The notes: a model not told the origin generated them from the letters alone. A DNA stretch of 64,000 nucleotides from an uncultured Gammaproteobacteria bacterium (GCA_964408485.1 CAYOZJ010000002.1:69235-133234); one strand, 5' to 3'; counted from the first letter of the stretch, positions 8,025 through 63,745 are shown. Numbers and translations are program-made.

Positions 8025-8222
8025 TGCATTCATAGCAGTATGCAGTAAGAATTATGGGCATATTGCGTAGAGCATAAAGCATAATTCATATATTTATACA
8101 TTGGGCAAACACCGTGTAATTCGGTGGAAGTGCCGCTACTGTAAATCCAGAAAACCATGTATAAATCATTCTCGAGCAAGAACGTTTTTGGGCACGTCCT
8201 TCTCGAGAGAGAGGGATTTTTT

Positions 8223-18145: not shown

Positions 18146-19015
18146 TTAAAGTTCGGTGAGGTGGGTATTTTCTTTTGCTCGGTCCGGGACAAATTCTAAA
18201 TATCTTTCTGTTGTAGAAAGTCTTTTGTGTCCAACAATTTTGGAAAGAAGGACCAACGATACGCCGTGTTTTAAGTGGTGGGCGATAAATGTGTGTCGAA
18301 GGTCATTAACCTTTGCACCTTTAATTTCGGCTAATCTAAAGTATCTTTCAACTGCTGTTCGGATATTTCGGATTAAGAATGGTCTGCCAGATTTGGTAAC
18401 AAAAATTCGCTCTTCAGCAACTGCAGGCCTGCCTTTTATGTATCTTTCCAATGATTCTTTTGCAGACTTATTAATTGGGACAACTCGTTCTTCATGCTTT
18501 TCAAATGGTCGAATGCGAAGACCTTCTGCAAGGACATCGTCCATACGAAGTTCGGCTAATTCGCCAATTCTAATTCCTGTTTGAAGCAAAAGCTCAATAA
18601 CAGCAAACATTCTCACATCATTTCGAGAGGCATCTCTGAGTGCTCGGTATTCTGTAGGTGTCAAAATGCGAGGTGCTGCGAGTGTGTATTGTGGGTGAGC
18701 AACTTGTAACGATGGGTCTTCTGAGACTAACCCTTTAGATTTTAAGAATCGGTAAAATGTGCGGATGGAATTAATCTTTCGGGAAAGGGACTTTGGTGTA
18801 TAACCAGAGCCTGAAAGTTTTGCTAAAAATGCCTCAATGTCTTCTTTTGTGATTCCTTCAATCTCTTTTTTCCCATTTTCTGCCAGAAAAGTAACCAACT
18901 GATCGATGTCTTTGGTGTATGCTACAATGGTAGCGTTTGATCTGGATTTTTCCTTGAGGAAATCGACAAATTGAGTCTTCGCGACGTCTAAAGTGAGTGT
19001 TGCCATAGTGTACAA
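18146..19015 (-). CDS. tyrosine site-specific recombinase, XerC/XerD-like
   Basis: N-terminal SAM-like domain. Catalytic-domain motifs LRHTFIAHHL and HKRLSTTERY (R-H-R-Y). At 289 aa it is Xer-sized. Confidence 0.85.
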   Translation of the reverse strand: MYTMATLTLDVAKTQFVDFLKEKSRSNATIVAYTKDIDQLVTFLAENGKKEIEGITKEDIEAFLAKLSGSGYTPKSLSRKINSIRTFYRFLKSKGLVSEDPSLQVAHPQYTLAAPRILTPTEYRALRDASRNDVRMFAVIELLLQTGIRIGELAELRMDDVLAEGLRIRPFEKHEERVVPINKSAKESLERYIKGRPAVAEERIFVTKSGRPFLIRNIRTAVERYFRLAEIKGAKVNDLRHTFIAHHLKHGVSLVLLSKIVGHKRLSTTERYLEFVPDRAKENTHLTEL

Positions 19016-23253: not shown

Positions 23254-24657
23254 ATGAAGATAAGCGAATTACATACAAAACGAATTGCTATTTTGGGTCT
23301 TGGTGTAGAGGGATTAGCAACGGCACAATATTTTTTAGAACATAAGATTGCCTTTTCCATTATTGATGAAAAGTCATTTACCGAACTTTCTGAAGGAGGG
23401 GATTTAAAGAATGCTTTAGAAAAACTTAAAGAGAATACTATTCCACTCGTTTTGGGAGAAGTTCCCACAAAAGAGCAGCTAGCTCAGTACGATGTACTTG
23501 TAAGAGCACCTGGAATCTCTCTGAAGAAAGATTATCTGCGAGGATTTAGCGGTAGCATTACTTCTGCAACTAAGCTCTTTTTTGACAATTGCCCTGGGAA
23601 AATTATTGGTGTAACAGGGACAAAAGGAAAGGGAACAACCAGCACATTGATCTATGAAATGCTTAAAAGTGCAGGAATCGACGCATATCTTGGCGGCAAC
23701 ATAGGACTGCCTCCATTATCATTTTTGGATACAGTAGATGATCAATCTATTGTTGTTCTGGAGCTTTCTAGTTTTCAATTAGAAGACCTTCAAAAAAGTC
23801 CCCACATTAGTGTCATGCTTATGGTAACGCAGGAACACTTAGACGGTTTTGGAAATCAAAATTATCACAGCTCAATTCGTGAGTATGTTGATGCAAAAAG
23901 AAATATTGTCAGATTCCAAACAGCAGATGATATGGCAATTCTTAATACAGACTATCCTGCCACTACAGAATCAGCTGGTGTTACCTCGGCTCAGGTTGCG
24001 TGGGTGAGTAGATACAAGCCTGTTGGAACAGGGTGCTTTGTGAGAGACAATGAGGTAATTCTTCGCAGCAATAATCAGGAGACCAAAGTAATTGACGCAG
24101 CTGATATTTTTCTTCCTGGAGGACATAATTTAGAAAATATCTGTGCAGCAACTATGGCTGCGTATTTTGCAGGCGTTGATGTTGCTGAAATTGCATCAGT
24201 TCTCAAGACCTTTAAAGGCTTAGAACACCGGTTGGAGTTGGTTAGGGAGTTGGATGGTGTTAGATATTATGACGATTCTTTCTCAACGGTTCCTGAGACT
24301 GCTATTGCTGCAATTCAAGCATTTAGTAATCCAGAAATTTTAATCTTGGGGGGGTCAAGCAAGAAATCAGATTTTACTCAGCTTGGAAAGCTTATTAGCG
24401 AAACACCAAATATAAAAGCAATTATTGGGATTGGAGTAGAATGGCCAGTCATAGAATCAAGAATCAAGAATCAAGAATCAAGAATAAAAATAGTGACAGG
24501 GTTAACAACCATGAAAGATATTGTTGAGACAGTCAGGAAATTAAGTGAGCCAGGAGATGTTGTGCTTCTTTCTCCAGCCTGCGCATCATTTGGGATGTTT
24601 AAGAATTACAAAGACAGAGGCAATCAGTTTAAAGAGCAAGTAAACAAATTAACCTAA
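23254..24657 (+). CDS. murD: UDP-N-acetylmuramoylalanine--D-glutamate ligase (carries in-frame repeat insertion)
   Basis: ILGLGVEGLATAQYF plus GVTGTKGKGTTSTLIYEML. Contains an inserted ESRIKNQESRIKI peptide from a GAATCAA tandem repeat. Confidence 0.9.
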   Translation: MKISELHTKRIAILGLGVEGLATAQYFLEHKIAFSIIDEKSFTELSEGGDLKNALEKLKENTIPLVLGEVPTKEQLAQYDVLVRAPGISLKKDYLRGFSGSITSATKLFFDNCPGKIIGVTGTKGKGTTSTLIYEMLKSAGIDAYLGGNIGLPPLSFLDTVDDQSIVVLELSSFQLEDLQKSPHISVMLMVTQEHLDGFGNQNYHSSIREYVDAKRNIVRFQTADDMAILNTDYPATTESAGVTSAQVAWVSRYKPVGTGCFVRDNEVILRSNNQETKVIDAADIFLPGGHNLENICAATMAAYFAGVDVAEIASVLKTFKGLEHRLELVRELDGVRYYDDSFSTVPETAIAAIQAFSNPEILILGGSSKKSDFTQLGKLISETPNIKAIIGIGVEWPVIESRIKNQESRIKIVTGLTTMKDIVETVRKLSEPGDVVLLSPACASFGMFKNYKDRGNQFKEQVNKLT

Positions 24658-24756
24658 TTGACCTAATTTACCTAATTTCTAAAGAAATCCCAATTTCAAA
24701 ATTAGTTATTGGGTATTTTTTAGGTTAATTAGAAATTAGTAATTAGAAATTTTTGT

Positions 24757-32752: not shown

Positions 32753-33658
32753 ATGCGAAAATTACAGCCTGAAAGAGTAAGAGAATTCCGCAGAAAAATA
32801 CTTTCCTGGTATAAAAAGAATAAGCGTGATTTACCTTGGCGCCATCCTTCGCTAAAGCTTCGGAATGGTAAAGGACGTGATCCTTATGCAATTCTTGTTT
32901 CAGAAGTAATGCTTCAACAAACACAAGTGAGTCGAGTCATTGAAAAATATAATGAGTGGATAAAAGCATTTCCAACAATTAGGAAATTGGCAAAAGCATC
33001 TTTTAGAGATATCTTGTCTCGTTGGTCAGGGCTTGGATACAACAGGCGTGCTTTATATCTGCAGCAGCTTGCCCAGGATATTGTGAAAAATCACCATGGA
33101 AAGTTTCCGCAGAATGAAAAAGAGCTACAAAAGCTTCCTGGCATTGGGGAATATACAGCTAGAGCAATTCTTTGTTTTGCATTTAATGAGCAAGTTGCTG
33201 TAGTGGATACAAATATCAGAAAAGTCATACTTACAAATTTTTTCTCTGAGCGAGCGAGGCGAGTCGAAGAGCCTTCGACAGGCTCAGGCAAAAAAGGTTC
33301 TGGGCAAGCCAGAATGACAGATAAAGAAATCCAAGAAATTGCAAATCAGCTTCTTCCAAAAGGAAAGGCCTATGAGTGGAATCAGGCGCTTATGGACTAT
33401 GCATCGAGTGAGTTAAAGCAGGAAAAAATACCAATTCCTAAGCAGTCAAAATTTAAAGATTCAGATAGGTATTATCGTGGAGAGATTTTGCGTATGCTTC
33501 TTACTAATCCTGCCTATTCATTTGAAGAGGTACAAAAACATTTTGTAGAAATCAAAAAAGAAATTTCTTCGCAGCGCCTTGAGAGAATAGTTCAAACATT
33601 ATATAAGGATAGATTTATTGAATATACAAAATCCGTTATAGTTCTGAGAAAGAATTAA
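32753..33658 (+). CDS. HhH-GPD DNA glycosylase (MutY/Nth family) with in-frame repeat insertion
   Basis: WYKKNKRDLPWR, PYAILVSEVMLQQTQV and LPGIGEYTARAILCFAFNEQVAVVDTNIRKV (HhH-GPD). Contains inserted FFSERARRVEEPSTGSGKKGSGQARMTDK. Confidence 0.8.
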   Translation: MRKLQPERVREFRRKILSWYKKNKRDLPWRHPSLKLRNGKGRDPYAILVSEVMLQQTQVSRVIEKYNEWIKAFPTIRKLAKASFRDILSRWSGLGYNRRALYLQQLAQDIVKNHHGKFPQNEKELQKLPGIGEYTARAILCFAFNEQVAVVDTNIRKVILTNFFSERARRVEEPSTGSGKKGSGQARMTDKEIQEIANQLLPKGKAYEWNQALMDYASSELKQEKIPIPKQSKFKDSDRYYRGEILRMLLTNPAYSFEEVQKHFVEIKKEISSQRLERIVQTLYKDRFIEYTKSVIVLRKN

Positions 33659-36294: not shown

Positions 36295-37320
36295 TTGTCA
36301 TGGTATACTACAAAGTACATGAAAAAGTTACTTCTGATTGATGGAAATGCCATTTTACACCGTGCATTTCATGCCTATCCACCAGTATTTTCTGACAAAG
36401 AGGGTAATCCTACAAATGCTATTTATGGCTTTTATGCAATGCTTTTAAAAGTTATGGAGGAGGTAAAACCAGATTTACTCACCATTTGCTTTGATCAAGG
36501 TGCGCCGACTTTTCGCATGAATATGTATGCTGGGTATCATGCCAATAGGCCAAAAATGCAGGACACATTGGGAGTACAGGTCGAGCCCTTGCGTGAGTCT
36601 TTGCGTAAAATAGGAATTCCCGTTGAAGCAATCGATGGATATGAAGCAGATGATTTAATTGGGACATTATCTCATCAAGCGTCAAGCGTAAGGCGTAAAG
36701 GGGAAAGTTTGGAAACAATAATCCTAACAGGTGACAGGGATCTTTTGCAGTTAATTAACGAGCATACCAAAGTTCTTATGCCAATAACAGGAATTACGAA
36801 GTCTGTCTTAATGGATGAAGGAGCAGTTGAGGCAAAATACGGCATAAAGGCAAGTCAGGTAATTGATTACAAAGCCTTAGTTGGCGACCCGTCTGATAAC
36901 TATCCAGGTGTTGGGGGAATAGGTCCTAAAACAGCGGCAACACTTCTTAAAGAGTGGGAAACATTGGAGAATTTGTATACCCATTTGGGAGATATAAAAC
37001 CTGAGTTGAGTCAAAAATTAGCTCAAGATGCAGAGCAGGCAATGCTATGCAAGAAGTTGGCAACCATTCAGCTAGACGTACCTGTTCATTTAGATATAAA
37101 GAAAGCAGATGTAGACAATTTTTCTCTGGAAAAGTTTTTGGATATTTTCGAGCACTTCAATATTCACTCATTGGTTAAGAGGCTTAGTCTAGCGCTAGGA
37201 AGTGAAGCACCTATAACACGAAGCGAGACGAAGCAATCTAGTTTAAAGAAAGATTCTGGACAAGCCAGAATGACGAAAGAAGAAAAGAAGAAAGAGGATA
37301 GTCAACTAGAGCTACTTTAG
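36295..37320 (+). CDS. 5'-3' exonuclease (stand-alone Pol I 5'-nuclease/FEN domain) with repeat-derived C-terminal tail
   Basis: LLLIDGNAILHRAFHA and GDRDLLQL, H3TH region. The C-terminal ~40 aa (SETKQSSLKKDSGQARMTKEEKKKED) derive from repeat DNA. Confidence 0.85.
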   Translation: MSWYTTKYMKKLLLIDGNAILHRAFHAYPPVFSDKEGNPTNAIYGFYAMLLKVMEEVKPDLLTICFDQGAPTFRMNMYAGYHANRPKMQDTLGVQVEPLRESLRKIGIPVEAIDGYEADDLIGTLSHQASSVRRKGESLETIILTGDRDLLQLINEHTKVLMPITGITKSVLMDEGAVEAKYGIKASQVIDYKALVGDPSDNYPGVGGIGPKTAATLLKEWETLENLYTHLGDIKPELSQKLAQDAEQAMLCKKLATIQLDVPVHLDIKKADVDNFSLEKFLDIFEHFNIHSLVKRLSLALGSEAPITRSETKQSSLKKDSGQARMTKEEKKKEDSQLELL

Positions 37321-39446: not shown

Positions 39447-40727
39447 ATGCCTAGAATAGCCCTGGTTCACGATTATATTAAAGAATACGGTGGAGCGGAA
39501 AGGGTACTAGAGACTTTGCATGAAATGTATCCCAATGCACCTGTATTTACCCTAGTATATTGTCCAAAATTCTTAGGACCACATAAAGATAGATTTAAGA
39601 ATTGGGATATCCGCACATCATTTCTTCAGTCTATCCCTTTTAAAGAAAAATTTATTAGCATCTTTCGGCTTTTTGCCCCATTTATTTTTCCATTTTTCAA
39701 CTTTGCTGGGTACGATGTAATCATTGTAAGCGCAACAGGGGCATATAGTCCCAACGTAGTTGGGACAAGAGGTAAGAAGGAAGAGGTAAGAAGTAAGGAA
39801 AGTGACCATACGCCATACGCCATACGCCATACGCCGTATCACATCTGCTACTGCCACACGCCGCCCAGATATTTGTATGGATACGCAACAGCTAGAGAAC
39901 TAAAAAAGAATTCTCTTATTCGATTATTGGCAGAATGGATGAATAAATGGCTTGTGCGAGTAGACAAAAAGTCCAGTAAAAATGTGGATTTGTATATTGC
40001 CAATTCAGAAGAAGTACGAGCACGAATTAAGAAATTTTATAACAAAGATGCAATTGTTGTGTATCCACCAGTTGATGTTCCTTCAGTGTCATTCCTGCGA
40101 AGGCAGGAATCCAGGAAAGGAACTGGATCCCGGATCGGAGTCCGGGATGACAATTTTTATCTAGCAGGCGGGCGTCTTGCCAGGCCAAAGCATTTCGATT
40201 TAATCATCAAGGTAGCAAATGAATTAAAGTTGTCCCTCAAGATTTTTGGGAAAGGATTTGCAGGGTATGGAGAAGAGCTGTATGATTTGGCAAATAGACT
40301 ACAGCAAGCAGACTACAGTAAAGAAGCTGTAGTCGGTAGTCCGAAAGCTGTAAGCGTTATTACGTTTTTGGGAGAAGTAACAGATGAAGAAAAAATACAT
40401 CTTATGTCCGGTGCTAAAGCATTTATTATGAGTAGTGAAGATGAGGATTTTGGCATAACACCAGTTGAGGCAATGGGGGTTGGGACACCGGTGATTGCAT
40501 ATAAGAGTGGTGGACTTAAAGAAACAGTTATTGATGGCAAGACAGGAGTATTTTTTGACATGTTATCTGCAGAAAGTCTAATTGGGGCAATAAAGAAGTT
40601 TGAAGCCCTTCGACAAGCTCAGGGTAAAAGACTGTCTGAGAATTGTATTGCGCAAGCGCAAAAATTTAGCAAAGAGAACTTTGAAAAAGGAATTCGTTCT
40701 GTCATCTCTAAAATCTTGTCATCCTGA
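39447..40727 (+). CDS. glycosyltransferase family 4 (GT1-fold) with multiple in-frame repeat insertions
   Basis: MPRIALVHDYIKEYGGAERV N-terminus and C-terminal EDFGITPVEAMGVGTPVIA (E-x7-E region). Inserted peptides EEVRSKESDHTPYAIRHTPYH and SFLRRQESRKGTGSRIGVRDD. The stop lies inside a GTCATCCTGAG repeat. Confidence 0.8.
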   Translation: MPRIALVHDYIKEYGGAERVLETLHEMYPNAPVFTLVYCPKFLGPHKDRFKNWDIRTSFLQSIPFKEKFISIFRLFAPFIFPFFNFAGYDVIIVSATGAYSPNVVGTRGKKEEVRSKESDHTPYAIRHTPYHICYCHTPPRYLYGYATARELKKNSLIRLLAEWMNKWLVRVDKKSSKNVDLYIANSEEVRARIKKFYNKDAIVVYPPVDVPSVSFLRRQESRKGTGSRIGVRDDNFYLAGGRLARPKHFDLIIKVANELKLSLKIFGKGFAGYGEELYDLANRLQQADYSKEAVVGSPKAVSVITFLGEVTDEEKIHLMSGAKAFIMSSEDEDFGITPVEAMGVGTPVIAYKSGGLKETVIDGKTGVFFDMLSAESLIGAIKKFEALRQAQGKRLSENCIAQAQKFSKENFEKGIRSVISKILSS

Positions 40728-42776: not shown

Positions 42777-43997
42777 ATGATCCTCAGGTCAATTCTTCTT
42801 CAGCATTTTCGCAATTATACCCAGGAAAAGTTTGATTTTTCAGAAACTCTCACTCTTATTATTGGAGTAAATACTGCCGGTAAAACCAATCTTTCTGAGG
42901 CAATATATTTACTTGCAACAGGGAAGAGTTTTAAGGCAGGTAATGATACATTTATGATTGCTTTTGGACAAGAGATTGCAAGGGTGGGAGGATTGCTGGA
43001 AGATGTCATCCCCGACCAGATCGGGGATCCAGGAAAAGAACTGGATTCCCGCTTTCGCGGGAATGACAGTAAAAAAAAGGATGACGGTTTGGACAAGACT
43101 AAAATAGAAGTAGTTATCGCCAGTCCTCAGGCAACTGGAGGGAGATTTAGCAAGAAATTTCTTATAAATGGTGTTGGAAAATCGCGGAATAGTTTGCGAG
43201 GTATGCTCCCAATTGTCCTTTTCCGGCCTGAAGAATTGGACATTATTATTGATGGACCAAGTCTCAGGCGCGCATTTCTTAATGAAGTACTTGAGCAGGC
43301 AGATAAAGAATATGCCCAAGCATTATCTGTCTTCGAACGGTCTCTTAGGCAGCGCAATGCGCTTCTTCGTATAGCTCAGGAGACTGGAAAACGAAATAGT
43401 GAGCAATTTGATTATTGGGACGAGCTTCTTATTGAGAGTGGGCAGACAATTACACAAAAGCGTGAAGAATTTTTGGTATTTATCAATTCATCCACTCATG
43501 ATATTTTTCCTTTACAGACTTTTTTCGATAAGAGTATTATTTCTCGCGAACGGTTAGATGGATATGAGATGGCAGAAGTCGGGGCAGGGGTGACCCTTGT
43601 AGGGCCTCACAGAGATGATTTCTTTGTGAACATGGAATATCCTGGTTTTAATCCCAACCCTCATCCCAGCTCGCCGAGGCAAGCTGACCTTCTCCCAAAA
43701 GGAGAAGGAGAACAAGGTGATATCCACTACGTGGATATACGATTTTTCGGTTCGAGGGGGCAGCAGAGACTTGCAGTGCTCCAGTTAAAAATGCTCCAAA
43801 TACAGTATTTGGAAAAGAAACTAGGAGTATTGCCACTTCTTATCTTGGATGATATTTTTTCTGAATTAGATAGTAACCATATTCAGCTTGTTTTGGATAA
43901 CGTGAAAGGATGCCAAATCATTCTAACCACAACGCATAGGGAGTTTATTCCACAAAAGGTATTACGTGAGGCTAGTGTGGTAGAATTAGAGCGATAA
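42777..43997 (+). CDS. recF: DNA replication and repair protein RecF with in-frame palindromic-element insertions
   Basis: MILRSILLQHFRNY, Walker A GVNTAGKTNLSEAIY and C-terminal LILDDIFSELD. Inserted VIPDQIGDPGKELDSRFRGNDSKKKDDG. Confidence 0.85.
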   Translation: MILRSILLQHFRNYTQEKFDFSETLTLIIGVNTAGKTNLSEAIYLLATGKSFKAGNDTFMIAFGQEIARVGGLLEDVIPDQIGDPGKELDSRFRGNDSKKKDDGLDKTKIEVVIASPQATGGRFSKKFLINGVGKSRNSLRGMLPIVLFRPEELDIIIDGPSLRRAFLNEVLEQADKEYAQALSVFERSLRQRNALLRIAQETGKRNSEQFDYWDELLIESGQTITQKREEFLVFINSSTHDIFPLQTFFDKSIISRERLDGYEMAEVGAGVTLVGPHRDDFFVNMEYPGFNPNPHPSSPRQADLLPKGEGEQGDIHYVDIRFFGSRGQQRLAVLQLKMLQIQYLEKKLGVLPLLILDDIFSELDSNHIQLVLDNVKGCQIILTTTHREFIPQKVLREASVVELER

Positions 43998-44093
43998 TTG
44001 TTATATTGTTATCGCTCGCAATGCTCGCTTATTGTTACATGGTTAACAATTTAGCCATATAGCAATTTAGCAATTTTTTAACGCAGTTAGTCT

Positions 44094-44972
44094 ATGCAAC
44101 AATTTGACATAAAACAACTGAAACAGCTTTACATTCCACCAGCTGGATCTCATAAAGGGGACAATGGAAAGGTTATGGTTATTGGCGGAAGTCAGCTTTT
44201 TCATGCTGCATCACTTTGGTCTTTGGAAATTGCATCAAAAATTGTAGATATGGTTTTTTACTCATCAGTTGATGCAAACAATGCACTCGTTGAAAAAGAA
44301 AAGGAAGCATTTAGAAATGGGATTATTGTTCCAAGAAATAAAATTGAAGATTACATTGCAGAGGCAGATAGCGTACTTATTGGGCCAGGATTACCAAGAG
44401 AGAATGGCTACGAGGCAGGCGATGACGATACAAAAATTCTCACCGAAAAACTTCTTAAAAAATATCCCAATAAGCGATGGGTAATTGATGGTGGTAGTTT
44501 GCAGGTGATTAACCCTGACCTTATTCCACAAAATGCTATTCTTACGCCACATCATCAAGAATTTGAAAGACTGTTTGGAAAGCGTCAAGCGTCAAGCGTC
44601 AAGCGTAAAGGAGAGAAAGAGATTGCCGCGGTCGCTAAAGACTCCCTCGCAATGACGGTTGGGGAGATGGCAAAGAAATATCACTGTATTGTTTTACTGA
44701 AAGGTCCAGAAGATGTTGTTTGTTCGGAAAATGAATGTGTAAGAGTTCCGGGAGGTAATGCAGGTATGACAAAAGGTGGAACAGGAGATGTGCTTGCAGG
44801 GCTTACAGCAGCTTTATATTCCCAAAACGCTGACGCATTCTTAGTAGCAACTTCTGCAAGCTATATCAATAAAAAAACAGGTGAGTCTCTTTTTGAAAAA
44901 CAAGGCTATTACTTTAACTCAAGTGATTTAGTGAAGGAAATCCCAGGAGTCATGAAAGAATTACTGCTCTAA
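44094..44972 (+). CDS. ADP-dependent NAD(P)H-hydrate dehydratase / YjeF C-terminal carbohydrate-kinase-like domain protein
   Basis: GDNGKVMVIGGSQLFHAASL and GGTGDVLAG. Carries the insertion KRQASSVKRKGEKEIAAVAKDSLAMTVGE. Confidence 0.75.
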   Translation: MQQFDIKQLKQLYIPPAGSHKGDNGKVMVIGGSQLFHAASLWSLEIASKIVDMVFYSSVDANNALVEKEKEAFRNGIIVPRNKIEDYIAEADSVLIGPGLPRENGYEAGDDDTKILTEKLLKKYPNKRWVIDGGSLQVINPDLIPQNAILTPHHQEFERLFGKRQASSVKRKGEKEIAAVAKDSLAMTVGEMAKKYHCIVLLKGPEDVVCSENECVRVPGGNAGMTKGGTGDVLAGLTAALYSQNADAFLVATSASYINKKTGESLFEKQGYYFNSSDLVKEIPGVMKELLL

Positions 44973-45266
44973 TTTTTCTTTTATTTTGCTTAAATTTATT
45001 GTTATAAGTACTGCAAGAATCGTAATAATCACTGCGTAGATAAGAAGAGAGAAGATGCCGTAGTTTGCGGGGAAGAATTTTTTAATGTAGTCATTCACAA
45101 CGCTTTGAATAACGTTATTCCATGCGAGTGCAGCAACTAATCCAAATCCGCTTGTTGCAAGGGTGATCATTTGCGTAACAATAGCAATTTGCAATTCCTT
45201 TTTTTGTGACTTTGTTGGGATTGGTTTGTCCGATTTTTCAGCCATGCTATAATTGTACCATAACAA
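44961..45266 (-). CDS. small two-TM membrane protein
   Basis: 101 aa with two hydrophobic helices. Confidence 0.4.
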   Translation of the reverse strand: MLWYNYSMAEKSDKPIPTKSQKKELQIAIVTQMITLATSGFGLVAALAWNNVIQSVVNDYIKKFFPANYGIFSLLIYAVIITILAVLITINLSKIKEKLEQ

Positions 45267-45354
45267 ATTATTTGTTTATTTCGAGTTAATGCGTTAACGG
45301 GTTAGATTTCTTAACTCGTGAACTCGTTAGCCCGTTAATATTTTAATAAAAATT

Positions 45355-46407
45355 ATGTATACCCCAACCTACACAATAAGCAATACAATCCTTCGTAATA
45401 TTGGTCTTATTGAGGCTGCAAAACAGGTAATTGATAGCGCTCCACTTCTTCCGTACTATGAAAAGAAATTTCGCGACGATGCTATGGTAAGAGCTGTCCA
45501 TTATGGCACGCATATTGAAGGAAACGAACTGTCACTCAATCAGGCAGAAAAAGTTTTGTCTGGTCAGATTGTTGACGCACGCGACCGAGATATTCAAGAG
45601 GTCTTAAATTATCGAAAGGTTATGGAGATGATCGGTTCATCGGAAATCGGGAATCGGGAATCGGGAATTGACGAAGAACTTATTTTTAAACTCCATAAGC
45701 TTACAGTCACTAAAGTTTTACCCGAAGAGCAGTCTGGTAATTATCGAAAAACAAAGGTAGTTATTCGCAATAGCCGCAGTGCAGAAGTAGTATTTACGCC
45801 GCCTTCTCCTGAGGAAGTAGCTGGACAAATGAGTGATTTTATTGCATTTATACAAACTCAGTCAGGTCAAGATATTCATCCAATATTGAAATCTGGAATT
45901 GTTCATTATGAATTCGTGAGAATTCATCCGTTTGTCGATGGAAATGGTCGGGTAGCACGGGCACTCTCGACTCTTATTCTTTTTTTGGAAGGGTATGACA
46001 TTCGACAGTTTTTCTCTTTGGAAGAATACTTTGATAAAGATGCTCTCAGCTATTACGAGGCACTGCAAAGTGTTGGGAAAAATAATGGAGACGTGACAAA
46101 TTGGCTTGAGTATTTTACTCATGGTCTTGCCTATGAGTTGGGAAGAATCCGGGAAAGAGTAGAGCATGTATCTGTAGATAATAGGCTTAAGCAGCGACTT
46201 GGTGGCAAGCCAATGATGCTGACAGACAGGCAGTTGAGGATTGTTGAATATATTCAAGAAACAGGTTTTCTGCAAAATCAAGCATTTAAAGAATTATTTC
46301 CAATGATTTCTGAAGACGCAGTGCTTTTGGATTTAAAAGAACTAGTTAAAGCTGGTCTTATTAAGAAATCAGGTGTCACTAAGGGCGCAAGGTATGTGAT
46401 GAGCTAA
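45355..46407 (+). CDS. Fic family protein (AMPylase-type) with C-terminal wHTH
   Basis: Fic motif HPFVDGNGRVARAL. Contains inserted IGNRESGI repeats from GAATCGG heptamers. Confidence 0.85.
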   Translation: MYTPTYTISNTILRNIGLIEAAKQVIDSAPLLPYYEKKFRDDAMVRAVHYGTHIEGNELSLNQAEKVLSGQIVDARDRDIQEVLNYRKVMEMIGSSEIGNRESGIDEELIFKLHKLTVTKVLPEEQSGNYRKTKVVIRNSRSAEVVFTPPSPEEVAGQMSDFIAFIQTQSGQDIHPILKSGIVHYEFVRIHPFVDGNGRVARALSTLILFLEGYDIRQFFSLEEYFDKDALSYYEALQSVGKNNGDVTNWLEYFTHGLAYELGRIRERVEHVSVDNRLKQRLGGKPMMLTDRQLRIVEYIQETGFLQNQAFKELFPMISEDAVLLDLKELVKAGLIKKSGVTKGARYVMS

Positions 46408-46450
46408 ATAATATTTGAGTTTTTAGCATTTTAGGTATAAACTTTTCGTT

Positions 46451-47302
46451 ATGACAAATGGACCAGTACCCGAAGCAAATAGAGGAAAAGAGGCTGCAAG
46501 AAGCTCAACAAGAATTCATTTTGGTTTCCAAGGAGAGCAGACTCCATTTGCAGATCCTCGAATAAATGCACATCAATTAAGAATACTTGGTAATGGAGTA
46601 ACAGGATTCATGAATAAATGTGTCCAAGATGGGATTACAACTGCAGTCTTTTTTGACACAAAGTCCCGTCCAGCTGCCCTTATTTTTAGAGATGTCTGGA
46701 GAAAGACATTGGGAAAACAAGGAATTCCCATGCCAAAAATACGCTTTGTTAATAATGGGAGAAGGGAAATGGATCCTGATGGAGATGCAGCAAATGCTGC
46801 AAGAGTAAAAGAAGCTCCACAAGTACTACCTAAGCGATTTGGAACATTAGCAGACGAACGTGTTTGCCTTGTCGATGACACTTCTGTTTCAGGACAAACA
46901 ATGCGAAATGGTAAGGCAGCATTTGATGCGGCATTTCCTCAAGCTGAGCAGATTTCGCAGCACATCCTCTTTACAGGACTGCCATTTTGGGATTCTAATG
47001 GAACAAATGATCCTGACTCTCTTGGAGTTGGAAGACTATTTCATGCCTCTTATGAAGAGGGCAAACCAAGCGTGAGTGATTGGACAGCAGCATCCTTTCT
47101 TAAACGTCTTGATCAGGCTCGGAAGAACACAATACCAGAAGATACATATGTTGAAGGAGACCCAACAGGTCCCATTAGTGCTCAGCAACATCGTGAGCTT
47201 CGTGCGGCAACTCTACAGCGTATGAGAGCGCTGAGAAGTCAGTTGCACGATGTATCAGATGTAATTGTTGCAAATTCTCAAATAATTACACCCCATAAGT
47301 GA
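46451..47302 (+). CDS. phosphoribosyltransferase (type I PRTase)-like domain protein
   Basis: RVCLVDDTSVSGQTM matches the PRPP-binding motif. The rest of the protein is unrecognised. Confidence 0.45.
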   Translation: MTNGPVPEANRGKEAARSSTRIHFGFQGEQTPFADPRINAHQLRILGNGVTGFMNKCVQDGITTAVFFDTKSRPAALIFRDVWRKTLGKQGIPMPKIRFVNNGRREMDPDGDAANAARVKEAPQVLPKRFGTLADERVCLVDDTSVSGQTMRNGKAAFDAAFPQAEQISQHILFTGLPFWDSNGTNDPDSLGVGRLFHASYEEGKPSVSDWTAASFLKRLDQARKNTIPEDTYVEGDPTGPISAQQHRELRAATLQRMRALRSQLHDVSDVIVANSQIITPHK

Positions 47303-47424
47303 GTGTGCTCTAATGAAAAGACACAGCAAATGTGCTAGGATTGGTCTATGACTTTTACTCATTTAGCTTCATTTCTTCATGTAATTAATAGACAAAAATG
47401 GGACAGTAAGGTATACTATAAGTT

Positions 47425-47703
47425 ATGAATACAGATAGATGTAGTTATGGAGGTAGAGCATGCGGACGTGATGGAATTCGTTGTGTTCTTCGCGAAGGAG
47501 TGAAGAGCCAAGGGAAAATGGGGGCTCCAGATGCAAACGACCCAACAGTTGGGGGGCCAAACTGGCCTTCAGAAACATGGGATACCTATACCCGTGATGT
47601 TCAGCAACAGGCAGATACGAGAGGGTGTCGAAAACCAGATGGCGTAAGACGAACAATACAAAGAGTTACGAGTGCAAAAAAGAAGCGAGGAGAGTTTAAA
47701 TAG
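47425..47703 (+). CDS. small hypothetical protein
   Basis: 92 aa, Gly/Arg-rich. Confidence 0.3.
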   Translation: MNTDRCSYGGRACGRDGIRCVLREGVKSQGKMGAPDANDPTVGGPNWPSETWDTYTRDVQQQADTRGCRKPDGVRRTIQRVTSAKKKRGEFK

Positions 47704-47730
47704 AATTTCTTTTCATGATATACTCGTGTT

Positions 47731-49521
47731 ATGACCTTTGCGAAATTAGCCTCGTATTTTGAAAAATTAGAAGCAACTTCCTCCCGTTTAGAGCTTATCC
47801 GTATTCTCTCAGAACTCTTCAAAGAAATAAAAACTCCAGATGAAATAGAAAAGGTATGTTATTTGGTTCAGGGTCGTATTGCGCCATTTTTTGAAGCAAC
47901 AGAAATCGGAATGGCAGAACGGACTGTGGCACAGTCCGTTGCTACAGCATTTAATGTCGAAAAAGAGAAAGTCTTAAAAGAATATAGTAAGCGTGGAGAT
48001 TTAGGGTTGGTTACGTATGAGCTTGCGCAAGAAGTAAGAAGTAAGAATTATGAATCAAGAATAACCATAGATGAGGTGTTTGAAACTTTAATAAAAATAG
48101 CAAAGACTAGTGGGGAAGGAACTGTTGAAAAACGACTAACATTATTAACAGATCTTTTGCAAAAAGTAGACGCACTTTCAGCAAAGTTTCTTGTACGCAT
48201 TCCACTAGGTAATCTTCGTTTGGGAATTGGTGACCCAACTGTTTTAGATGCACTCGCGACAGTAAAATTGGGAGATAAAACCCAGCGACATTATTTAGAA
48301 GATGCATACAATAGGACATCTGACTTAGGACTTATTGCAAAAACTCTTTGGTCAGAAAAAAGCGCAATGAAAGCATTGGGTGCAGTCGAAAAATTAGAAG
48401 TAACAGTTGGTAAGCCAATTCGAAGCGAATTGTGCGAGCGTCTTCCTAGTCCTGAAAAAACAATAGAAAAAATGGGGACAGTGGATTCACAGTTTAAATA
48501 CGATGGATTTCGCGTACAAATTCATAAAAATGGAAATGAAATCTCGCTTTTTTCTCGTAATTTAGAAAATATGACCCATATGTTTCCAGAGCTTATAGAG
48601 GGAGCCAAGAGACAAATTAAAGCGCGTAGCGCAATTCTGGATAGCGAAGCATTAGCATACATACCTGAGTCTGAAGAATTTTTGCCTTTCCAGGAGACAA
48701 CAAAACGAAGACGTAAGCATAATATAGAAGAAACAATGGCCAAGCTTCCACTTAAGTCATTTGTTTTTGACATTTTGTATAAAGATGGCAAGTCACTTAT
48801 TGGCGAACCTTTAGAAAAGCGTTTGGAGATTTTGTCAAAAACCCTTCGGCCAGCTCAGGGCAAGCAGTTTAACGATAGTGTTCTTTTTCCAGCAGATACT
48901 AAAAAGATTTCTGATGCAAAGGTGTTATCTCTTATGCTTGATGACGCAATTTCTAAAGGCTTAGAGGGAATAGTAGTAAAGAAATTGAATAGTCTTTACG
49001 AAGCAGGCGCGCGCAATTTTAACTGGGTAAAGCTAAAGCGTAACCAGTCTGGTGAGTTAACAGATACGGTTGACTGTGTGATTTTAGGATACATTTTTGG
49101 CAAAGGAAAGCGAACAGCATTTGGCGCAGGAGCATTATTGGTTGGTGTGTATGATAAAGCATCAGATAGCTTTGTAACAGTAAGTAAGATTGGAACAGGA
49201 TTAACTGATGAGGAGTGGAAAAGTATTAAGGAAAGGACAAAAGGATTAGAACTTTCTCATAAGCCAGCTCGGGTGAGCTCTATTATAGAACCAAGTGTTT
49301 GGGTAAAGCCTGAGATTGTTATAGAGGTCTTGGCAGATGAGATTACAAGAAGTCCTATTCATACAGCAGGAGCTACTTTGGAGAACGGAAAAGTCGTTGA
49401 GCCAGGATATGCTCTCAGATTTCCACGGTTAGTTAACTTTCGGGATAAAGATAAAAAATCAGAAGATGCAACGGATGTGAAAGAGTTGATTGAAATGTAT
49501 AAGAGTCAAGGAAAGAAGTAG
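47731..49521 (+). CDS. ATP-dependent DNA ligase
   Basis: Adenylation motif KYDGFRVQIH (KxDG), OB domain. Inserted heptamer-derived QEVRSKNYESRI. Confidence 0.85.
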   Translation: MTFAKLASYFEKLEATSSRLELIRILSELFKEIKTPDEIEKVCYLVQGRIAPFFEATEIGMAERTVAQSVATAFNVEKEKVLKEYSKRGDLGLVTYELAQEVRSKNYESRITIDEVFETLIKIAKTSGEGTVEKRLTLLTDLLQKVDALSAKFLVRIPLGNLRLGIGDPTVLDALATVKLGDKTQRHYLEDAYNRTSDLGLIAKTLWSEKSAMKALGAVEKLEVTVGKPIRSELCERLPSPEKTIEKMGTVDSQFKYDGFRVQIHKNGNEISLFSRNLENMTHMFPELIEGAKRQIKARSAILDSEALAYIPESEEFLPFQETTKRRRKHNIEETMAKLPLKSFVFDILYKDGKSLIGEPLEKRLEILSKTLRPAQGKQFNDSVLFPADTKKISDAKVLSLMLDDAISKGLEGIVVKKLNSLYEAGARNFNWVKLKRNQSGELTDTVDCVILGYIFGKGKRTAFGAGALLVGVYDKASDSFVTVSKIGTGLTDEEWKSIKERTKGLELSHKPARVSSIIEPSVWVKPEIVIEVLADEITRSPIHTAGATLENGKVVEPGYALRFPRLVNFRDKDKKSEDATDVKELIEMYKSQGKK

Positions 49522-49874: not shown

Positions 49875-51374
49875 ATGGTTGATGTTGTTGCAGATTTACA
49901 TCTGCATTCTCGTTTCTCCAGAGCGGTTAGTCCTCAAATGACTCCTCCCACAATGGCACAATTTGGAGACCAGAAAGGGATAGATCTTTTGGCAACAGGA
50001 GACTGGACACATCCGGTATGGTTTCGGGAAATCAGCAACTTTCTCACAGAAGCAGAAGAAGGACTGTATAAAATCAAGAATCCAACTCCCCAAAATGAAA
50101 AGACACGATTTCTTCTTTCTGTAGAAATTGCCTCTATTTATTCCCAAGGAGGGAAGGGAAGAAGGATTCACAACTTAGTATTTGTTCCATCCTTCGAAGT
50201 GGCAGCAAAAGTAAATAAAGAGCTGATAAAACGCGGATTTAATTTATCTTCTGACGGGAGGCCAATCATAGGATTTTCCTCAAAGAATTTACTTTCACTT
50301 CTCCTTGAAGTAGATGAGCGGTGTCTTCTTATTCCCGCTCATGTCTGGACGCCATGGTTTGGCATTTACGGACAGATGTCTGGGTTTCAAAGTCTTGCGG
50401 AAGCATTTGAAGAATTAGCACCAAAGATTTATGGAATAGAGACAGGTCTTTCAAGTGATCCGGAGATGAATTGGCAAGTTGATGAGCTAAAGACAAGGTC
50501 AATTCTTAGCTTTTCTGATGCACATTCTCCTGCGAAAATGGGGCGAGAAGCAACGGTTTTTCGCTTGGACAGCTTGTCTTATGAGAATATTCGTCAAGCA
50601 ATAATGGCGCCAAGCCTTCGTTCCGTCATTGCGAGCAAAGCGAAGCAATCTAATATAAATAAGGAGAAGATTGCCACGTCGCAAGCTCCTCGCAATGACA
50701 ATGTTAATAAAGTACTCTACACCATAGAATTTTATCCAGAAGAGGGGAAGTACCATTATTCAGGCCATAGAAATTGCGGAATTACCATGACGCCACAAGA
50801 GCAAGCAGCAGCGCATAATATTTGTCCTGTATGTAAAAGGTCTCTTACCGATGGGGTTATGAGACGTGTTCAGGAACTCGTAGAAAAGGACCCTTCGGCA
50901 TCGGTTCGGCAAGCTCACGACGAGGGCTCAGGGCAAGGTCCCTTTGGAAGTCATACGCCTAATAAAAGTGGCCTTGTCTGGATAACAGACCCTAAAGAAA
51001 ATCGTCCACCATTTGTCAAAATAGTACCGCTCCAGGAAATAATTAGTGAGGCAATTGGGAGTCCTTTTGCAAGCCCGAAGGTAAAAGTAATCTTCGATAT
51101 GCTCTGTAAAGACGGACTCTCTGAATTTAATGTACTCCTTAAATTGCCCTTACCAGATATTGAGCGAATAAGTCTTAGTATTACTTCAAAAGAATTTGCT
51201 GAAAAAATTACTGATGGAATAAAGAAAGTACGTGCAGAGCAAATTGTGATTAAGCCAGGATACGACGGTGTATTTGGGGTAGTAAAGATTTGGAGTGATG
51301 AGAATGACAGTGAAAACCCTTCGACTTCGCTCAGGGAAAAAGATACTGAAGAGCAGATTGGATTAGAGTTTTAG
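49875..51374 (+). CDS. Endonuclease Q (EndoQ)-like PHP-domain nuclease with zinc finger
   Basis: DLHLHSRFSRAVSPQMT PHP N-terminus, LIPAHVWTPWFGIYG, SFSDAHSPAKMGREAT, KYHYSGHRNCGI and CPVCKRSL zinc finger, RPPFVKIVPLQEII. All are collinear with archaeal EndoQ as I recall it. Confidence 0.7.
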   Translation: MVDVVADLHLHSRFSRAVSPQMTPPTMAQFGDQKGIDLLATGDWTHPVWFREISNFLTEAEEGLYKIKNPTPQNEKTRFLLSVEIASIYSQGGKGRRIHNLVFVPSFEVAAKVNKELIKRGFNLSSDGRPIIGFSSKNLLSLLLEVDERCLLIPAHVWTPWFGIYGQMSGFQSLAEAFEELAPKIYGIETGLSSDPEMNWQVDELKTRSILSFSDAHSPAKMGREATVFRLDSLSYENIRQAIMAPSLRSVIASKAKQSNINKEKIATSQAPRNDNVNKVLYTIEFYPEEGKYHYSGHRNCGITMTPQEQAAAHNICPVCKRSLTDGVMRRVQELVEKDPSASVRQAHDEGSGQGPFGSHTPNKSGLVWITDPKENRPPFVKIVPLQEIISEAIGSPFASPKVKVIFDMLCKDGLSEFNVLLKLPLPDIERISLSITSKEFAEKITDGIKKVRAEQIVIKPGYDGVFGVVKIWSDENDSENPSTSLREKDTEEQIGLEF

Positions 51375-51512
51375 GCTTCTTGACTTTTGATTGCAAATTT
51401 CTCCATACTAAATATGTAGTAAGTATTAGGTATTACGTATTAAGTATATTAAGGAACTTTATTTATACATACTACTTACTACTTAATACAAAACGGGAGG
51501 GGGGTGAAATAT

Positions 51513-52002: not shown

Positions 52003-52235
52003 TGTCATTTCGAACAAAGCGAGAAATCTCATTCAAGTATTTTTCTTCTTCTGTACTTTTGTGCCGACAAAAGATACCAAAAACTCTCGCCAAGGTCTTG
52101 TTCGAGCTTTCAAAAAAGAGCTCCAAAGCTAAAAGTACGCAGTTCGCTTTCACTTTCTTTACGCTTTTATGCCCTTTTTCTTATGCACTCACTGCAAATT
52201 GGCGAATAAGAACCATTTACATGAGGAGTATAATA
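52003..52235 (+). repeat. ~200-bp dispersed repeat copy A (upstream of pth)
   Basis: Near-identical core to 63530..63745 (..CTCTCGCCA.G..CTTGTT..AGCTTTCAAAAAAGAGCT.CAAAGCTAAAAGTACGCAGTTCGCTTTCACTTTCTT.ACGCTTTT..). Confidence 0.7.
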
Positions 52236-52241
52236 AGACAT

Positions 52242-52856
52242 ATGAAATTAATAGTGGGACTCGGTAATCCAGGCGAAAAGTATGAGAAAACAAGACATAA
52301 CATAGGATTTATGGCATTGGATAGTTTCCTCAAAGATTTTGAGTCTACAAAAGATACGGTTTGGACAGATAGTAAAAAATTCAAATCAGATATTGCAGAA
52401 ATTGCGTGGCAACGACAAACTGATGGTGACAAATCTCATGACCCTGAAAAAGTTATTTTAGCCAAGCCTAAAACATATATGAATGATTCAGGTCTAGCTG
52501 TTAAATTACTGATAGATTTTTACAAGGTACAGCCAGAAGATCTGTGGATACTGCATGACGATGTGGATTTTCCTGCAGGATCTATGCGAATTCGATTAGG
52601 AGGAGCATCAGCAGGGCACAGAGGGATCATGTCTATTATTGAGCATTTGGGTACAGACCAATTTTATCGCTTTCGCTTAGGCATTGGGAGGCCGGGGGAA
52701 AGTGAACACAGTGGAGTAAGTCATTATGTACTGGATACCTTTAACCATGAAGACCACAGTAATGTAAGGGAACTTCTTAAGCGGACAAGCAAGGCTATTG
52801 AGCTAGGACTAGAAAAAGATTTAACCGCTGCAATGAACAAATATAACTCCAAATAG
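52242..52856 (+). CDS. pth: peptidyl-tRNA hydrolase
   Basis: MKLIVGLGNPGEKYEKTRHNIGF N-terminus. The track ORF extends upstream through the repeat, so 52242 is preferred. Confidence 0.85.
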   Translation: MKLIVGLGNPGEKYEKTRHNIGFMALDSFLKDFESTKDTVWTDSKKFKSDIAEIAWQRQTDGDKSHDPEKVILAKPKTYMNDSGLAVKLLIDFYKVQPEDLWILHDDVDFPAGSMRIRLGGASAGHRGIMSIIEHLGTDQFYRFRLGIGRPGESEHSGVSHYVLDTFNHEDHSNVRELLKRTSKAIELGLEKDLTAAMNKYNSK

Positions 52857-53858: not shown

Positions 53859-53930
53859 TTGGGTCATCCTGGCTTGTCCAGGATCTAGATTCTGGATGCG
53901 CTTTGCTTACCAGAATGACAGGAGAATTTT

Positions 53931-59637: not shown

Positions 59638-59735
59638 GAAGCAAGAATCATGAATTAAGAATTATGCAGAGGGTTTATTAAAAATAAAGTACCTTATATC
59701 CATAATTCATACTTCTTGATTCATAATTCATATTT

Positions 59736-63529: not shown

Positions 63530-63745
63530 ATTGTCATTTCGAACAAAATGAGAAATCTTTTCTTTTTAACTTCTCTTGTACCGACAAGAGAAGCAGAAGC
63601 TCTCGCCAGGCCTTGTTCCAGCTTTCAAAAAAGAGCTTCAAAGCTAAAAGTACGCAGTTCGCTTTCACTTTCTTAACGCTTTTCCGCTCTTTTTCTCTCG
63701 CAGTCACAGCGGATTGGCGAATAAAGACCGCGGAAAATTTACCTC
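63530..63745 (+). repeat. ~200-bp dispersed repeat copy B (upstream of partial ORF at 63780)
   Basis: See copy A at 52003..52235. Confidence 0.7.

Follow-up and report, generated by a model that had tools for sequence, protein, structure and literature searches.

The DNA analyzed in this study is a 64,000-nucleotide stretch (GCA_964408485.1 CAYOZJ010000002.1:69235-133234; hereafter, the window) assigned to an uncultured Gammaproteobacteria bacterium. Its G+C content is 39.4%. At 36319..37320, on the plus strand, the window carries a gene for a stand-alone 5'-3' exonuclease of the flap endonuclease (FEN)-like type, 333 residues long, which was identified by its Pfam domains, homologs, AlphaFold2 (AF2) model and PDB match. 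Three segments of this gene resemble short repeats dispersed in the window: a heptamer tract in a predicted surface loop, and two modules of a repetitive extragenic palindromic (REP) family in the part encoding the C-terminal tail. We consider it likely that the gene gained three in-frame pieces of the genome's own short repeat DNA at two tolerant sites, by selfish spread of the repeats combined with a selection filter. At the level of sequence, the pieces were shown to be insertions of dispersed families into sites that are reused in other genomes, with the reading frame and a terminal protein motif kept.

An intact stand-alone exonuclease

The reading frame of the nuclease is open from a TTG at 36295, and the ATG at 36319, which agrees with the starts of orthologs, is the likely start. 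Two Pfam domains scored above their gathering cut-offs (34.3 and 40 bits, respectively): 5_3_exonuc_N (PF02739) at residues 3-175 (E 5.6e-52, 176.2 bits) and 5_3_exonuc (PF01367) at residues 177-268 (E 7.2e-31, 107 bits). We aligned the protein with 30 close orthologs (54-85% identity), the closest being L001 (85%) and L002. The invariant columns D8, D59, E109, D111, D112, D139, D141, D190 and D193 are all kept in the window protein, which therefore has the features of the 5'-3' exonuclease/FEN family, i.e., both domains and the catalytic acidic residues. The AF2 model has a mean predicted local distance difference test (pLDDT) score of 85.4 and a confident fold through residue 296; the pLDDT of residues 297-333 is below 50. 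The top PDB match is the 5'-nuclease domain of Taq Pol I.

Judged from these domains and residues, the protein is an ordinary, intact, stand-alone 5'-3' exonuclease. The initial annotation had called the gene a Pol I 5'-nuclease gene, but it does not form part of a Pol I gene as its N-terminal domain. With bacterial 5'-3' exonucleases and flap endonucleases (the Pol I domain, mycobacterial FenA, 6C33, and E. coli Xni/ExoIX, 3ZD8) it shares the two Pfam domains and all metal-binding acidic residues; it differs from them in being a stand-alone protein with a disordered C-terminal linker ending in QLELL, which is not seen in the listed PDB relatives. The closest named sequences among 6451 homologs are from Patescibacteria, and homologs of the product of the nearby YjeF gene are named Candidatus Levybacteria. 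Scans of genome and metagenome contig collections gave 12 and 18 nuclease loci, mostly 50-55% identical relatives without repeats. Because these scans contained few close relatives, ortholog DNA was mostly obtained via exact-protein look-ups, and it covered 17 of the 30 orthologs.

A heptamer insert in a surface loop

Tandem Repeats Finder (TRF) and a pattern search identified a heptamer tract, CAAGCGT CAAGCGT AAGGCGT AAAGG, at 36676..36701 on the plus strand. The tract had been noted in the initial annotation and was confirmed, with a true position 4 nt further upstream. TRF described it as period 7 with 3.4 copies and 82% matches, which amounts to about two perfect units and one imperfect unit. 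The part that is inserted relative to orthologs, as the initial annotation had supposed, is TCAAGCGTAAGGCGT (36682-36696), 15 nt that encode SSVRR and add five amino acids. It corresponds to a 15-nt gap in the DNA of both L001 and L002, and in the structure match with Taq Pol I a 5-residue gap falls exactly at this site. The insert is flanked by ancestral CAAGCG (Gln-Ala) on the left and AAAGG on the right. In the AF2 model it falls in a surface loop between the end of helix 110-127, which follows the EADD metal site, and strand 131-136. It lengthens the end of the helix, and the pLDDT in that block is 78 versus 95-97 in the adjoining blocks.

The same heptamer had been reported in YjeF, and comparison of the nuclease gene with 44570..44670 recovered that array: the two tracts share 90% identity over 30 nt. 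A 26-nt degenerate heptamer pattern occurs in the window only at 36676-36701 and 44586-44611, with 0 matches in 100 dinucleotide shuffles. The peptide reading common to both tracts, QASSV[KR]RKG, was discarded as evidence, because a 3-unit heptamer array runs through all three frames and the shared reading is thus uninformative. Folding predicted no hairpin in the nuclease tract.

A tract of this kind could act as a contingency (phase-variation) locus, in which the gain or loss of one 7-nt unit, not being a multiple of 3, would shift the frame and turn the nuclease off; heptamer repeats drive such switching in other bacteria. We regard this explanation as highly improbable here. The tract is too short for frequent slippage, the gene encodes a single-copy housekeeping nuclease, similar arrays occur in many housekeeping genes, and the neighboring arrays are identical in two other assemblies. 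The insert most likely arose via polymerase slippage or via microhomology-mediated copying from another (CAAGCGT)n array, although this is the least certain step of the proposed history. Copying is plausible since the flanks CAAGCG and AAAGG match the ends of the YjeF array.

Repeat modules in an ancestral C-terminal tail

In every aligned ortholog (31/31), the tail consists of a hypervariable K/E-rich linker followed by a terminal QLELL-type motif. Variants of this motif include QLGLL, QMELI and QLDLL, its general form being QL[E/G/D/A]L[L/I] after a linker of variable length. Over the 31 sequences, Q329 and L332 never vary, and conservation at L330 and L333 is at least 90%. The linker of the window protein contains two repeat modules. 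The left one is inside a 33-nt insertion at 37210..37242 (plus strand), which the DNA alignment showed to be absent from L001 and L002. It is a degenerate, head-truncated REP unit in minus sense, GCGAGACGAAGCAATCT (~37223-37239), read as ..RSETKQS... The module resembles the tail half of intact ATTGC-type units, such as those at 50624-50651 (CGTCATTGCGAGCAAAGCGAAGCAATCT) and in YjeF of L003, and the left unit at 50624 was its best match when the gene was compared with 50620..50700. Its head is lost and it no longer folds.

The right module, at 37252..37275 on the plus strand, is an intact CGTC-type REP hairpin, GATTCTGG-ACAAG-CCAGAATGACG, which was identified by folding and by a copy search and encodes DSGQARMT. 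On the minus strand it reads CGTC-ATTCTGG-cttgt-CCAGAAT-ctt, with a 7-bp stem and a 5-nt loop. Folded as single-stranded DNA, it has a dG of -5.5 kcal/mol and a z-score of -5.65, and none of 200 shuffles was as stable. Three copies of a 23-nt hairpin, GATYCTGGRCAAGCCAGRATGAC, occur in the window (37252-37274, 33296-33318 and 53863-53885) versus 0 in shuffles. Likewise, CGAAGCAATC was found at 37229 in the tail and at 50641, and CCAGAATGAC at 33309, 37265 (in the tail) and 53910. These copies substantiate the view of the initial annotation that the tail contains modules of repeat families seen elsewhere, in YjeF and at 50620-50700. The two tail modules (37223/37252) form an inverted pair with tags pointing outward, as is typical for the family in the window. 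At nearly the same place in the tail, L002 has a hairpin with a different stem, GATCCTGAAACAAGTTCAGGATGAC, in another reading frame, and L001 has none.

Downstream of the hairpin, the segment KEEKKKEDSQLELL (37276..37317, plus strand) is the ancestral tail end, and its last 15 nt (37303-37317) encode QLELL. The initial annotation had read the last ~40 residues as repeat DNA appended to the conserved nuclease domain. Part of them is indeed translated repeat, but only ~22 residues (PITRSETKQSSLKKDSGQARMT), roughly residues 298-322 of 333, are repeat-derived, and the rest is ancestral. A new extension made wholly of repeat DNA, on a nuclease that once ended at its helix-three-turn-helix (H3TH) domain, would explain why the Pfam domains stop at residue 268 and why two repeat modules lie in the tail. 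This appears very unlikely, because every aligned ortholog has a tail of similar length ending in QLELL, the tails of L001, L003 and L004 contain no repeat module, and the codons of the final 14 residues can be aligned with the orthologs base for base. A tail appended as a whole to the nuclease is thus contradicted by the comparison of C-termini, in which all orthologs have a homologous extension and that of the closest, L001, is free of repeat modules. The presence of a homologous tail in every ortholog indicates that the tail is ancestral and, on the alignments, the repeats were inserted later into a disordered linker that already existed.

Chance or low-complexity resemblance in an A/G-rich region was also considered. 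The tail is K/E-rich, and TRF also reports trivial AAAGAAGA repeats at 37267-37295. Resemblance of this sort is extremely unlikely to account for the data: neither the heptamer nor the hairpin patterns had a match in 100 shuffles, and the matching segments are exactly those absent from the orthologs.

The conserved end of the tail may have a function of its own. The consensus for binding the beta clamp is QL(D/S)LF, usually located in flexible termini, according to a published account (PMC6511837). QLELL, the final five residues of the nuclease at the end of a segment with pLDDT <50, fits both the sequence and the position of such a motif, and we propose it as a candidate beta-clamp-binding motif that putatively binds the hydrophobic cleft of DnaN, as pentapeptides of the Q-L-x-L-[F/L] form do. 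Archaeal and eukaryotic FEN1 have a C-terminal tether, the PCNA-interacting protein (PIP) box, and the architecture of the window nuclease, a linker with a QLELL end, is similar. The conservation of QLELL suggests that a stand-alone bacterial flap nuclease would be tethered to the sliding clamp as FEN1 is to PCNA.

A dispersed family of CGTC-tagged hairpins

Hairpins ending in ATGAC occur 25 times in the window versus 3.4 times in shuffles, and about 21 hairpin units are dispersed in the 64 kb. On the opposite strand, a unit consists of a (C/T)GTC tag, a stem starting with AT, a short loop, and the return stem with a 3-nt tail, as in TGTC-ATTCCCGC-gaaa-GCGGGAAT-CCA at 43045. GAC followed strict AT..AT hairpins of the window and of related loci 32 times, compared with 0-7 times for each of 12 other trinucleotides. 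As expected for a CGTC/TGTC tag, 29 of these 32 strict units end in GACA or GACG. In 13 cases their 5' flank is TGG, which is CCA when read along the tag strand; otherwise it is TAG, GAG or AAG, and the nuclease unit has AAG (CTT).

Stems start with AT in every unit and are 8 bp long at 40088, 40127, 43005, 43045 and 57783, 7 bp in the nuclease, and 5 bp in a sub-family beginning with ATTGC or ATTTC. Loops are typically 4-5 nt: that of the nuclease unit, ACAAG, is among the commonest, together with TCAAG, TTTC and CTTC, and some loops are 6 nt. The 5-bp-stem sub-family has 12-22-nt loops and falls outside this range. There are 14-15 different stems in all, and pairs are common (inverted pairs at 40088/40127, 43005/43045, 50625/50670, 53863/53889 and 37223/37252). 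A reference inverted pair, CGTCATTGCGAGCAAAGCGAAGCAATCT ... GATTGCCACGTCGCAAGCTCCTCGCAATGAC, lies at 50624..50699 (strand not assigned), in frame in the open reading frame (ORF) 49875-51374. When sites were retrieved by tag and loop only, which avoids circularity, 155 of 169 inner stem positions were Watson-Crick paired across 14 different arms, indicating that the hairpin is maintained by covariation.

The unit in the nuclease tail is also found in L005, L015, L039 and L042-L044. The last three are IMG/VR contigs (46-58% G+C) with exact ATTCTGG-ACAAG-CCAGAAT-GACA, plus sister units that have covarying stems and the same loop. Copies in contigs of such different base composition indicate that the family is widespread, well beyond the lineage of the window. 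Scans of viral contigs gave the exact REP in 3 contigs and (AAGCGTC)n in 19, with unrelated GC content; these repeats are therefore widespread, and the scans are uninformative on transfer.

Period-7 arrays and the YjeF locus

The closest counterpart of the heptamer tract lies in the YjeF/NAD(P)HX dehydratase gene. Its insert, at 44580..44656 on the plus strand (TRF and hairpin scan), consists of 4.4 copies of (AAGCGTC) at 44580-44610, an 11-nt spacer, and the REP unit GATTGCC..CTCGCAATGAC at 44622-44656. At this site L002 has neither insert, and L003 has a complete REP pair (~14340-14440). As the window has only the right unit, its array stands where L003 has its left REP unit. The hot spot, which is also represented by the YjeF genes of L038 and L039, follows the protein motif 'TPHxxEFxxLF'. 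Among 103 YjeF orthologs, about a quarter have no insert, and others have REP pairs, heptamer arrays or inverted heptamer arrays. In L037, (TTGTCGC)x4 adjoins TGTCAT at this site (1624-1665). The YjeF gene of L038 has an inverted heptamer array design in frame (NQESR..SLFMIHD). Two independent Logan assemblies are 100% identical to 43041-48483 of the window, which includes the YjeF array, its REP and two further arrays.

Period 7 is over-represented relative to other periods and to chance. Strict period-7 arrays number 5 in the window versus 0.05 in shuffles, with none for periods 6, 8 and 10-12, and 13 of 41 TRF rows in the window have period 7. In related loci (0.53 Mb) we found 92 period-7 arrays with many different units, against 3 of period 6 and 36 of period 8. 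Such arrays lie inside many housekeeping genes, e.g., those for a MurD-like protein, a ligase, a Fic protein and a glycosyltransferase. Regardless of the unit sequence, array lengths cluster around 4.3-4.7 copies (~30-33 nt), which hints at a length-defined process rather than open-ended slippage. Pairs of inverted intergenic heptamer or nonamer arrays form long imperfect palindromes at 51416-51489, 59645-59732 and 24647-24751.

It is conceivable, though doubtful, that the arrays and the CGTC hairpins are two products of one DNA-processing activity in Patescibacteria. About 7 nt of a REP unit, either the tag-proximal head or a stem arm, would be reiterated to ~30-33 nt, and arrays and hairpins would replace each other at shared hot spots. 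Leads come from the YjeF site, where the array unit (AAGCGTC) contains the REP head CGTCA and stands at the position of the left REP unit in L003, and where L037 has its array beside TGTCAT. At 45639, (CGGGAAT)n runs into TGACG, which looks like a REP arm with its tag, and GTCAT and GTGAC stand on either side of the array at 24453. The clustering of array lengths is a further lead. Against this, most array units show no REP likeness, and the tag (TGAC/GTCA) stands beside 6 of 65 non-redundant arrays versus 4.9 expected in random intervals. Because the tag is not enriched near arrays, we keep the idea of REP-derived arrays only as a lead. The replacement of a REP by an array and the clamp-motif tether are the parts of this work that merit further attention.

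Intragenic units and reuse of insertion sites

Ten of the ~21 units in the window are within ORFs, all in frame. This is 48%, compared with a coding fraction of 87%, so genes contain fewer units than their share of the sequence would predict but by no means lack them. Among the six intragenic units in plus sense, only the ..MT or ..[N/D]D frames occur, because plus-sense aTGAc gives a stop in one frame. Both sites in the nuclease gene are occupied in other genomes. The loop site holds a REP pair in each of L015 and L017; L005 has a decayed REP there, L018 an (AAATCCY) array and L007 a 14-nt duplication. In the tail, L002, L015 and L016 have REPs that are read in other frames. Unrelated REPs or heptamer arrays at the same two sites mark these as permissive hot spots, and scattered insertion with survival only at permissive sites is the simplest reading. 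When window inserts were strictly required to be missing from L002, L003 and L015 alike, few remained, since these orthologs bear inserts of their own at the same sites.

The inserts might instead be functional and kept by selection, either through the mRNA hairpin acting as an RNA element (for stability, as an RNase site or as a translational pause) or through the peptides tuning the tether and the loop. The stems covary and the structure is thus maintained, a REP sits at almost the same linker position in several orthologs, and REPs have been proposed as RNA elements (PMC3733652). However, the closest ortholog has no insert, and the units of orthologs differ in sequence, orientation and frame, so there is no conserved peptide. 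The left unit is decayed and unfolded. Covariation characterizes the family in general, its intergenic copies as well, and would be expected if mobilizing or copying requires the hairpin. We therefore judge a function of the inserts unlikely. Specifically, a hairpin role was rejected for the heptamer tract and the left tail module, neither of which shows structure on folding.

The explanation that we favor, insertion followed by filtering, would work as follows. REP units would spread as selfish or non-autonomous DNA, moved by some enzyme or by template switching at hairpins. Selection would then act as a filter, such that intragenic copies survive only if they are in frame, free of stops, and located in a loop or a disordered linker. 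For inserts in the tail, a preserved frame would also be needed for translation to reach QLELL. On balance the inserts are most likely neutral for the protein, making its loop slightly longer and lengthening its tether.

Several observations weigh against this explanation. Mobility is deduced from presence and absence among species and not within a population, and the recurrence at the same sites could reflect targeting instead of a selective filter. A mobilizing enzyme was not found: a Pfam scan of 10 unannotated ORFs in the 64-kb window revealed no Y1/RAYT transposase, its hits including one XerC-like integrase and one TraG/VirD4-like ATPase. The left tail module is short and decayed and is by itself a weak match, a shared 10-mer being expected ~0.1 times by chance. 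The T of the CAAGCGT unit is unexplained by local slippage, since the orthologs have CAGGCA directly followed by AAAG at this point. Finally, exact-protein look-up found no independent assembly over the nuclease gene itself, although a chimera is made less likely by the open frame of the nuclease and by the analogous inserts seen in many other assemblies.

Relation to known repeat systems

As described by Di Nocera, De Gregorio & Rocco (2013, PMC3733652), members of the CGTC-tagged REP superfamily have a CGTC or TGTC tag (variant CCTC), an 8-9-bp stem with A and T first, 4-5-nt loops and a 3-nt unpaired tail that is mostly CCA; dimers are frequent, copies may be intragenic, and no transposase is associated with them. 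The window hairpins fit this definition in tag, stem start, loop and arrangement. They have the unpaired CGTC/TGTC tag, A and T at the stem start and, the 5-bp-stem sub-family apart, a 4-6-nt loop; stem length (8, 7 or 5 bp) and the 3-nt tail (often CCA, in 13 of 32 strict units) agree in part of the units. Their many units are dispersed, heterogeneous and often arranged as inverted pairs, some are in frame in genes, notably those for replication and repair, and the partial scan of the 64-kb window gave no associated transposase. They differ in that the host, by homolog names, belongs to Patescibacteria, the Candidate Phyla Radiation (CPR), the nuclease unit has a 7-bp stem (not 8-9) and a CTT tail (not CCA), there is a 5-bp-stem sub-family with a 12-22-nt loop, and nearly half of the window units are intragenic, far above what is usual for REPs. 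We found no publications linking terms for REPs or MITEs (miniature transposable elements with inverted repeats) with CPR/Patescibacteria in a search with incomplete literature coverage.

In placement, the closest parallel is with Rickettsia palindromic elements (RPEs), reportedly presented by Ogata and colleagues in 2000 as 'selfish DNA in protein-coding genes'. In both cases, short palindromic repeats stand in frame in conserved housekeeping genes, the bacterium has a small genome, the sites are compatible with the protein surface, and the protein is left intact. The window inserts are likewise in-frame palindromic repeats that are absent from orthologs, and we set them beside RPEs by design, not by sequence. 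RPE-1 is much longer (about 100-150 nt) and, in the window, heptamer arrays use the same kinds of site.

REPIN/RAYT systems consist of GTAG REPs mobilized by IS200/IS605-like tyrosine transposases. The window units share with them the inverted hairpin pairs, a conserved unpaired tetranucleotide and a plausible single-strand, hairpin-dependent mode of spread. They were not assigned to this class: the tag is (C/T)GTC, not GTAG, and no RAYT was detected in the 10 unannotated ORFs that made up our partial scan. Published CGTC families similarly lack a RAYT.

With regard to the heptamers, cyanobacterial short tandemly repeated repetitive (STRR) sequences are comparable heptanucleotide repeats. An excess of heptanucleotide repeats in prokaryotes has been ascribed to polymerase slippage (Mrazek et al. 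2007, as summarized in PMC4679880). As in such long simple sequence repeats, period 7 is by far the commonest here, with few copies per array and many units. Here, however, ~30-33-nt arrays lie in frame in housekeeping genes at REP hot spots, and one array replaces a REP unit at an orthologous position. The finding is therefore a clear example of a known phenomenon, intragenic CGTC-type REPs of RPE-like character together with the known heptamer excess, in a new host lineage, and not a new system.

Genomes of CPR/Patescibacteria are small and usually described as streamlined. The window shows the opposite at fine scale, its housekeeping genes being peppered with in-frame palindromic repeats and heptamer arrays (the repeat-bearing genes encode the nuclease, a glycosylase, a RecF-like ATPase, the NAD(P)HX dehydratase, a glycosyltransferase and a ligase), and the insertion sites are reused in many lineages. 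Odd peptides of CPR proteins, such as ..SGQARMT, ..RDDK, VIASEAKQS and ESRIKNQ, are thus repeat DNA and not domains; they inflate the apparent novelty of proteins and can disturb alignments and family clustering. The reused sites mark permissive loops and linkers of essential proteins. The CGTC type of REP, which is without a known mobilizing enzyme, extends into a deep-branching radiation whose small genomes could ease the search for that enzyme.

Repeats in other genes of the window

Several further genes carry repeats. The HhH-GPD glycosylase gene has a REP unit at 33296-33318 (GSGQARMT). Its counterpart in L002 (6949) carries, close to the same residue (~aa 182-184), a unit whose stem differs, making this DNA-repair gene a second case of site reuse; in L015 (2117) a REP unit lies at ~residue 113, which is not the shared site. 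The glycosyltransferase (39447-40727) is ~60 aa longer than its orthologs, the extra residues coming from repeats: adjacent heptamer arrays at 39767-39797 and 39806-35, the REP pair 40088/40127, a palindrome GACTACAG..CTGTAGTC (~40290-40340) and a 15-nt 'QGKRL' segment (~40610). In the RecF-like ATPase (42777-43997), the REP pair 43005/43045 reads VIPDQIGD..DSRFRGND, and a 26-aa insert (aa 291-316) has a different palindrome, CCTTCTCC-caaaa-GGAGAAGG, which probably represents another repeat family.

The TraG/VirD4-like coupling ATPase and the XerC-like tyrosine recombinase are encoded in the same 64 kb, at 12271-14640 and 18146-19015. An Rfam scan of the window detected only two tRNAs and an AdoCbl-II riboswitch, with nothing at the repeats; the riboswitch (8093-8165) is upstream of ORF 8157. 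A ~210-nt repeat (~85% identical) is present at 52003-52215 and 63532-63730; it starts with the REP unit TGTCATTTCGAAC..GAGAAATC and is located upstream of promoter-like sequences. Peptidyl-tRNA hydrolase is the product of the ORF called from 52002, whose real start is probably near 52275.

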